Positions 25,153-25,196 of a stretch of DNA of 64,000 nucleotides are shown in pieces; the first letter of the stretch is position 1, and each line of letters opens with the position of its first letter. A program made the translations under genes and the position numbers. A model generated the notes under the pieces. The model saw only the letters and a program-made list of their open reading frames with translations, did not search any database and had not been told where the DNA came from. The stretch is taken from NCBI GenBank assembly GCA_018825985.1, contig JAHKAP010000052.1, positions 6,373-70,372 of the forward strand. The letters run 5' to 3'. The stretch comes from Candidatus Omnitrophota bacterium. Lineage in GTDB: Bacteria; Omnitrophota; Gorgyraeia; Gygaellales; Profunditerraquicolaceae.

Positions 25153-25196
25153 AAAGACGTCTTAAGAAACTTTAAAGGACGTCTTTTATTTTTTTA
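25153..25196 (+). promoter_or_regulatory. Leader hairpin/terminator built from GACGTC palindromes upstream of gdhA
   Basis: AAAGACGUC ... GACGUCUUU (9 bp) followed by UAUUUUUUU. Lies between a putative promoter (TTGACA 25063) and the gdhA RBS. Confidence 0.4.

Follow-up and report, generated by a model that had tools for sequence, protein, structure and literature searches.

The RNA targets of ANTAR antiterminators have been defined as mini-hairpins with stems of at least 3 bp and six-base loops (hexaloops) carrying A at position 1 (A1) and G at position 4 (G4), the second hairpin lying at the 5′ base of a terminator, and they mostly precede nitrogen genes (PMC3369931). A1 matters for EutV and NasR. 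The minimal motif has since been redefined, from the structure of EutV with RNA, as a single hexaloop whose G4 is stacked on a tyrosine, and the isolated upstream (P1) and terminator-proximal (P2) hairpins have affinities not significantly different from that of the full RNA (PMC8934654). Nitrogen regulons under ANTAR control have been described for Firmicutes and Deltaproteobacteria (PMC3369931, PMC2995071), and the target consensus of the Geobacter protein GnfR is CAGGCAANGGCGCC (PMC2995071). According to the 2012 study, none of the proteins that join ANTAR to PAS or GAF had by then been characterised (PMC3369931). Here the leaders of a nitrogen-assimilation cluster are analysed in a stretch of 64,000 nucleotides (nt) from a Candidatus Omnitrophota bacterium (contig JAHKAP010000052.1, positions 6,373 to 70,372; hereafter the window). 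They contain hairpins that probably are the terminator halves of ANTAR-type attenuators in the 5′ leaders of the nitrogen-assimilation operons.

The cluster spans 22.5–37.4 kb of the window and contains nfnA/gltD-like genes, gdhA, the gene of a small sigma-70-family protein, a porin gene, amt, glnK, the gene of a type III glutamine synthetase (GS), that of a Fis-type helix-turn-helix protein (HTH8), and gltB. An earlier note had placed hairpins followed by U-runs, built on a GACGTC palindrome, ahead of three of its operons, and these three hairpins are real leader terminators. In the gdhA leader (25153–25195), the arm AAAGACGTCTT, a 12-nt loop, and the arm AAGGACGTCTTT are followed by UAUUUUUUU. 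In the porin-amt leader (27536–27582), the arms are GAGACGTCTTTTA and AAAAGACGTCTT, with U8 on the 3′ side of the stem. In the nfnA-like leader (22697–22736), the arm GAGACGTCC, a 12-nt loop, and the arm GGGGCGTCTT are followed by UUCCUGUUUU, and a C-G swap together with a U·G pair keeps this stem paired. RNA folding of the three regions gives −18.5, −12.1, and −19.1 kcal/mol, with z-scores of −3.3, −3.3, and −4.7 against a background of dinucleotide shuffles. The nfnA hairpin reaches −18.5 kcal/mol on the + strand versus −10.5 on the − strand. All three sites thus show a stable stem-loop directly followed by a U-run on the transcribed strand, as in intrinsic terminators. The U-run of the nfnA-like leader is broken up (UUUUCCUGUUUU), and this terminator is therefore probably weaker.

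Each of the three hairpins lies between a promoter-like site and the start codon of the gene, in keeping with the earlier claim. The promoters of the nfnA-like leader (TTGACA/TATTAT, 22656–22683) and of the gdhA leader (TTGACA/TAAGAT, 25063–25091) are sigma-70-like, and a promoter-like GTTACC-N18-CTTGTA precedes the hairpin of the porin-amt leader (27377–27406). Because promoter-like sites precede all of them, the hairpins are 5′ leader elements and not the terminators of the upstream genes.

The palindrome AAGACGTCTT, with at most one mismatch, has 7 matches in the window where 1.34 are expected, and GACGTC alone has 7 copies where 3.04 are expected; none of 100 shuffles reaches 7 in either count. 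Six of the seven GACGTC copies are in non-coding DNA, which makes up 7.5% of the window (binomial P ~1e-6). The proposal that this palindrome is itself the recognised or conserved unit does not survive comparison with relatives. The comparison set consists of 80 loci from other Omnitrophota genomes, fetched via the sigma-like protein, and over these loci the order sigma - (porin) - amt - glnK - GS - HTH8 - gltB is conserved. Paired GACGTC occurs in just 3 further hairpins among the 80 loci, and hence the palindrome is not the conserved feature. A neutral scan of the orthologous leaders for a hairpin followed by a U-run finds one or two terminators in nearly every one of them. The 5′ arms of these terminators have in common GRCGTYY, and are not palindromic: AGGCGTCC in sigma-gene leaders, GGCGTTCT in GS leaders, and AGACGTTCA in HTH8 leaders. 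Judging from this comparison, AGACGTCT is a variant of the GRCGTYY arm that happens to equal its own reverse complement, and the palindrome appears as a by-product. A loop ending in AGAC on an AGAC/GTCT stem renders the arm self-complementary, and for this reason the two terminator arms resemble each other in this genome.

The conserved element is a mini-hairpin, NNAC-[NNAGRC]-GTNN (loops are given in brackets), with a covarying stem of 3–4 bp and a six-base loop. Among 158 distinct units, the bases at −5 and −4 upstream of the arm are A and C in 152 and 150 cases, respectively; these positions played no part in the selection of units. The two bases 5′ of AC pair with the YY of the arm. When 150 units are aligned without gaps, one stem pair is AU in 62, GC in 61, GU in 18, and unpaired in 9, and the next pair outward is GC in 59 and AU in 39, counts that span related sequences and paralogous leader classes, each perhaps inherited en bloc. 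The covariation score is reached by none of 500 shuffles, and sliding the 3′ partner by 1–3 columns gives far lower scores. The loops of these P2 hairpins have G at position 4 in 152 of the 158 units (a purine was allowed there in the selection) and A at position 3 in 112. Since the GRC of the loop and the 3′ stem of P2 are the first seven bases of the terminator, the mini-hairpin and the terminator are mutually exclusive. Of the GRCGTYY heptamers with AC ahead of them, 255 of 292 have a terminator, compared with 189 of 759 where AC is lacking (odds ratio ~21). Beyond annotated leaders and genes, 79 further AC-GRCGTYY terminator units lie on the cluster strand and 4 on the opposite one. The conservation in orthologous leaders that the earlier note had wished to see checked is thus found across the phylum, for the hairpin unit.

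Could the paired copies of AAGACGTCTT be double-stranded DNA operators for a dimeric factor, such as the Fis-type HTH_8 or the sigma-like protein, the hairpin being incidental or secondary? Each arm in this genome is itself palindromic, the arms are 22 and 31 bp apart, i.e., roughly whole helical turns, and the cluster encodes two DNA-binding proteins. Yet the arms of orthologous units are not palindromic, the distance from arm to arm varies from 3 to 65 nt, the units are nearly all on the transcribed strand with the T-run always downstream, and the two nfnA arms diverge by changes that preserve pairing. When the stems are re-selected so that G·U and A·C count alike as pairs, 278 G·U versus 7 A·C are found among the seven basal pairs of the terminators. 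This asymmetry makes sense only for RNA of the sense strand and effectively rules out a double-stranded DNA operator. The symmetric half-sites, fixed spacing, and strand independence of a palindromic operator are all missing, and the suggestion of an operator that doubles as a terminator has to be regarded as very improbable. Reading GAAC...CGT as an ECF-type promoter was also considered and rejected, as the spacing is ~5 nt and not ~16.

The three sites are real, but the restriction to three operons is not: the window has eight units in six leaders (nfnA-like, gdhA, sigma-like twice, porin-amt-glnK twice, HTH8-gltB, and pyrG), all on the + strand. The nfnA-like P2 mini-hairpin, GAC-[AGAGAC]-GTC (22693–22704), carries A1 and G4 in its loop, and the 5′ arm of its terminator consists of the 3′ half of the P2 loop and the P2 3′ stem. 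The mini-hairpin begins ~10 nt past the −10 hexamer (22678–22683), i.e., at the 5′ end of the transcript, which leaves no space for a P1 hairpin. The gdhA P2, GAC-[AAAGAC]-GTC (25150–25161), also has A1 and G4, and its terminator, the primary site of the earlier note, ends in U4AU7. The third of the hairpins singled out earlier is unit B of porin-amt-glnK (27529–27582), where P2 is AAAGAC-[CGAGAC]-GTCTTT (27529–27546) and overlaps a terminator of 13 bp (27536–27576) plus U8. All three hairpins are retained in a close relative, locus L091 (88% identity in the sigma-like protein), where the sequence of the gdhA unit is the same from the P2 mini-hairpin to the end of the U-run and amt unit B has one loop base changed (CGAGAC to CAAGAC).

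The five additional units have the core GGC in place of GAC. Two are in the leader of the sigma-like gene. Unit A (26702–26740) has P2 GAAC-[GCAGGC]-GTTC (26702–26715), overlapping the terminator GGCGTTCGC...GGCGAACGTT (26709–26733) plus U-run. Unit B (26748–26797) has P2 GGACT-[AAAGGC]-GGTCC (26748–26763), overlapping the terminator AAGGCGGTCC...GGGCCGCCTT (26754–26792) plus U-run, and is the sole addition from a relaxed, noisy scan of the whole window for a hexaloop plus terminator. Unit A of porin-amt-glnK (27419–27475) has both hairpins: P1 ACAC-[GTAGAT]-GTGT (27419–27432), a 4-nt linker, and P2 AAC-[AGAGGC]-GTT (27437–27448), with the terminator AGGCGTTCT...AGAACGCTT (27442–27468) plus U-run. 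The HTH8-gltB unit (32424–32509) likewise has P1, TGCAC-[GTTGTA]-GTGCA (32424–32439), in addition to P2, GAAC-[GCAGGC]-GTTC (32461–32474), and the terminator AGGCGTTCA...GAGCGCCT (32467–32503) plus U-run. The last unit (41556–41606) precedes pyrG, which encodes CTP synthase, a glutamine amidotransferase; P2 AAAC-[AAAGGC]-GTTT overlaps the terminator AGGCGTTT...AAACGCCT plus U-run. An 8-bp hairpin with the hexaloop AAATAA (41529–41550) is found 5 nt upstream of the pyrG unit.

P1 hairpins are not restricted to the window. A hairpin RCAC-[N6]-GTGY lies at most 45 nt upstream of 78 of the 255 units, where ~1 is expected by chance. The search left loop positions 1 and 4 unconstrained, and all 78 loops have G at position 4 and a purine at position 1 (A in 53, G in the remaining 25); typical loops are ATTGAA, GTTGTA, and AGTGAT. 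The linkers between P1 and P2 are mostly 3–8 or 13–27 nt long.

These features suggest the following mechanism. By default, the nascent RNA would fold into the long stem formed by GRCGTYY and its complement, followed by the U-run, and the polymerase would stop ahead of the gene. In the alternative fold, the upstream NNAC (3–6 bases) would pair with GTNN at the start of the terminator 5′ arm, enclosing the loop NNAGRC; the two folds would be mutually exclusive. An active ANTAR antiterminator would stabilise this second fold by binding the hexaloop hairpin, with the flipped-out G4 as its stacking partner. GRCGTYY would then be sequestered, the terminator blocked, and the polymerase would read into the operon. 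In Omnitrophota the antiterminator would be a protein of 240 amino acids (aa) with GAF and ANTAR domains, presumably responding to a metabolite via GAF. The proposal of a dedicated regulatory hairpin in the leader, an attenuator that most likely is a protein-binding RNA, gains support, as the unit recurs at the same relative position in nitrogen operons.

The likeness to the known ANTAR targets (EutV/eutP, NasR/nasF, AmiR/amiE) is close. In both cases there is a short-stemmed hexaloop hairpin with a key G4, whose formation at the 5′ base of an intrinsic terminator precludes that of the terminator, and often a second hexaloop hairpin a few bases upstream. All eight units of the window have a hexaloop mini-hairpin of at least 3 bp in this position, and the loops AGAGAC, AAAGAC, and CGAGAC of the three hairpins first noticed all have G4. 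In both cases the elements precede nitrogen genes, including those for PII, ammonium transporters, and glutamine and glutamate synthases, and in Omnitrophota relatives a protein with an ANTAR domain is encoded nearby. There are also differences. In Omnitrophota, A1 is found in only about half of the P2 loops, with A3 and RC at positions 5–6 conserved instead. With a strict search pattern, about two-thirds of the units, including the three first noticed, have no P1. Many units lie right at the 5′ terminus of the transcript, and stacks of two per leader are frequent. Finally, the candidate partner combines GAF with ANTAR, an architecture with no characterised example according to the 2012 paper.

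The closest precedent with experimental support is GnfR of Geobacter, and the units would be a new example of this known mechanism. In Geobacter, terminators in nitrogen-gene leaders are overcome by the ANTAR protein GnfR, the role for which an ANTAR protein is the candidate in Omnitrophota. The consensus given above for GnfR overlaps the terminator and reads GGC-[AANGGC]-GCC, with GGC at loop positions 4–6 as in most Omnitrophota units. A second control at the level of initiation is exerted there by RpoN/GnfM, and here the cluster sigma factor and its promoter are candidates for it. The stem is GGC/GCC in Geobacter versus NNAC/GTNN in Omnitrophota. Geobacter relies on a response regulator (GnfR, REC-ANTAR) and its partner kinase, while the Omnitrophota sensor would be a GAF domain. 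The gene gdhA is preceded by a putative attenuator here, whereas in Geobacter it is under initiation control by the master GnfL/GnfM system. The variant features of the Omnitrophota elements are the many single-hexaloop units, the stacking of units, the conserved A3, R5, and C6 of the loop, and the putative GAF sensor. The RAT systems of BglG, SacY, and LicT also rely on a single antiterminator hairpin that is stabilised by a protein and overlaps the 5′ arm of a leader terminator. However, the RAT element, of ~29 nt, has internal loops and is recognised by CAT domains; neither such an element nor such a protein is seen here, and the hexaloop points to ANTAR.

The distribution of ANTAR genes provides a candidate regulator. 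Upstream of the sigma-like gene, 40 of the 80 loci encode a 240-aa protein with GAF and ANTAR domains on the cluster strand, often as its immediate neighbour, ~200 nt away, and the gene is present in 24 of the 39 loci for which the full 10 kb of upstream sequence is available. Its Pfam matches are ANTAR (1.8e-18) and GAF_2 (5e-23). Relatives of known structure in the PDB include Rv1626, EutV, and NasR for the ANTAR half, and a Nif-specific regulatory protein and phosphoenolpyruvate-protein phosphotransferases for the GAF half. In four loci the gene is itself preceded by units. This makes the GAF-ANTAR protein the best candidate regulator judging from gene content and adjacency, ahead of the ECF sigma factor, the Fis-like protein, and PII, which had been put forward earlier. 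The protein would bind these hairpins, and its binding would promote read-through. Related GAF domains bind 2-oxoglutarate or glutamine, and on this basis the GAF domain may sense a metabolite of nitrogen status such as these.

Three further observations concern these genes and their surroundings. Some loci have two GAF-ANTAR paralogues, which fall into two score groups (L010, 425–1162 and 5272–6093; L011, 696–1478 and 1776–2483; L063, 6263–6925 and 7256–8020). In most cases the GAF-ANTAR gene and the end of an aminotransferase gene (Aminotran_1_2) overlap; 3′ of GAF-ANTAR lies NadE, the sigma-like gene, or amt (L085, where the region is 1874–3747, L093, and L094–L100). In the P0199 loci (L085 and L086), an AsnC-type regulator is found ahead of the aminotransferase gene. 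The units with GAC loops could form a sub-class that is read differently from those with GGC loops, for example by a second GAF-ANTAR paralogue.

Several observations weigh against the assignment to ANTAR. Neither HMM (hidden Markov model) search nor tblastn finds an ANTAR gene in the 64-kb window or, in L091, within 10 kb on either side of the sigma-like gene. The three hairpins first noticed have no credible P1 partner, and the P2 stems of two of them are just 3 bp. A at loop position 1 is present in 79 of the 158 P2 loops and in two of these three units, with C at this position in amt unit B. Rfam gives nothing relevant in the window at gathering score, and only chance-level matches in 22400–32600 at E up to 10. 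The shared ancestry behind the covariation counts is to be added to this list. The missing P1 is accommodated by the redefinition of the minimal motif as a single hexaloop, under which P1 is no longer strictly defining (PMC8934654). Two candidates for P1 in the gdhA leader were rejected: AGGGC-[GCGTAA]-GTTTT lacks G4 and contains three G·U pairs, and TTTT-[AATGAC]-AAAG overlaps P2. The 191-aa protein encoded upstream of nfnA (21951–22526) was set aside, having no Pfam domain and no similarity to GAF-ANTAR.

These same observations lend themselves to another reading, in which the attenuators work without an ANTAR protein, either as tiny terminator-embedded riboswitches for a nitrogen metabolite or as targets of another RNA-binding protein or a small RNA. 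The ANTAR gene is absent from the window and from the vicinity of the cluster in the closest relative, the three units have one hairpin only, A1 is not conserved, and aptamers embedded in terminators are known (PMC6478431). Against this, a hairpin of 12–18 nt is very small for a ligand pocket, and a hexaloop with invariant G4 that overlaps the terminator fits the definition of ANTAR targets. The GAF-ANTAR gene, itself unit-bearing, is adjacent to the cluster in half of the loci, as described above. The protein has more than 3800 homologues, and the best 120 are 80–86% identical to the query, those whose source is named being from Omnitrophota/Omnitrophica. An ANTAR-free attenuator therefore seems unlikely, and the genome studied here presumably encodes its own ANTAR protein. 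With the best 120 homologues so similar, the family is too uniform to single out the orthologue of this genome, and three candidate homologues that were looked up are all from other species. A literature search returned no paper linking ANTAR to Omnitrophota and none using the term GAF-ANTAR.

The genes that carry units also bear on whether the ANTAR-type attenuators respond to a signal at all. Units are found ahead of amt, glnK, porins, GS type III, GS type I, HTH8-gltB, gdhA, nfnAB-like genes, and pyrG, and further ahead of glutamine-dependent NAD synthase, an amino-acid permease fused to PII, nifH, and GAF-ANTAR itself. Because the units precede nitrogen genes, the regulon is nitrogen metabolism throughout. 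Constitutive elements without response to a signal, i.e., partial terminators that set the level of expression, operon insulators, RNA-stability hairpins, or a dispersed repeat, would also produce hairpins with U-runs that look like ordinary intrinsic terminators, and these genomes do have other repeated hairpins, such as GGGGACACCC/GGGTGTCCCC at 22584–22621. Such elements would not be expected to be confined to the leaders of nitrogen-metabolism genes, downstream of promoters and upstream of start codons, and a plain terminator has no need of a conserved, covarying alternative hairpin. Hence, a constitutive role is quite improbable.

Initiation may provide another layer of control. The small sigma-70-family protein of the window (26813–27328, + strand) is GerE/region-4-like above the Pfam cut-off, with region 2 just below it, and has 928 homologues. 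Its gene lies upstream of amt/glnK in most of the 80 loci, among those long enough, and this points to a dedicated nitrogen sigma factor. The promoter-like GTTACC-N18-CTTGTA occurs, on the + strand, not only ahead of porin-amt but also ahead of GS type III (30100–30129) and HTH8-gltB (32379–32408). In the window and the 80 loci together, all 140 copies of this element are on the cluster strand; the spacer is 18 in 138 of the 140, and a P2 core follows within 120 nt downstream in 116. The promoter is probably read by the cluster's own small sigma factor. Since the leader of the sigma-like gene in the window contains two units, and the rigid promoter stands ahead of amt, GS, and HTH8-gltB, the arrangement suggests a feed-forward cascade. 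One may tentatively go further, to a scheme about which doubt slightly outweighs belief: nearly the whole nitrogen-assimilation regulon of Omnitrophota might be under two layers of control, GAF-ANTAR acting on stacked hexaloop/terminator units and the cluster sigma factor acting on GTTACC-N18-CTTGTA, with the sigma mRNA gated by two units in a feed-forward arrangement.

Sigma-gene leaders show an arrangement of their own. In most loci (e.g., L021 and L043), the first terminator, AAGTCTTCTGG...CCGGAAGGCTT plus U-run, lies ~100–60 nt upstream of the gene and is overlapped by the hairpin AAGAC-[ATTGAA]-GTCTT, the loop of which resembles P1 loops. In these leaders the P1-like hairpin and the P2 hairpin each mask their own terminator.

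The analysis provides a concrete model of how nitrogen assimilation may be regulated in a phylum represented here by metagenome-assembled genomes alone. It combines a compact RNA element (NNAC-NNAGRC-GTNN plus terminator), GAF-ANTAR as the candidate regulator, and a sigma factor, along with its promoter, as the candidate partner. If correct, it would extend the link between ANTAR and nitrogen metabolism to another deep lineage. The ~250 natural hexaloop variants, including many single-hairpin units, bear on RNA recognition by ANTAR, and the units with P2 only would be natural examples of the model in which a single hexaloop is sufficient. The GAF-ANTAR architecture would be a likely sensor of nitrogen status, for which neither the 2012 study nor the literature search provides a characterised example. 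For annotation, the lesson is that an RNA switch can leave, as a by-product, a palindrome in a single genome.

Other elements of the window deserve mention. A conserved double hairpin, CGCCA..TGGCGAATCCGCC..GGCGGA (27583–27627), lies directly 3′ of the terminator U-run in the porin-amt leader and is also found 3′ of U-runs in L014, L022, L034, and L039. Between the open reading frame of 191 aa and the nfnA promoter (22560–22621), GAGACGTCCCC is followed by the hairpin GGGGACACCC...GGGTGTCCCC, which may represent a dispersed repeat or terminator family; long hairpins of the GGGGAC/GTCCCC type recur in other loci, e.g., L020, L062, and L091. Finally, a c-di-GMP-I riboswitch (Rfam RF01051, 41 bits for a gathering score of 35) is found at 15424–15581, upstream of an open reading frame at 15698–16921.

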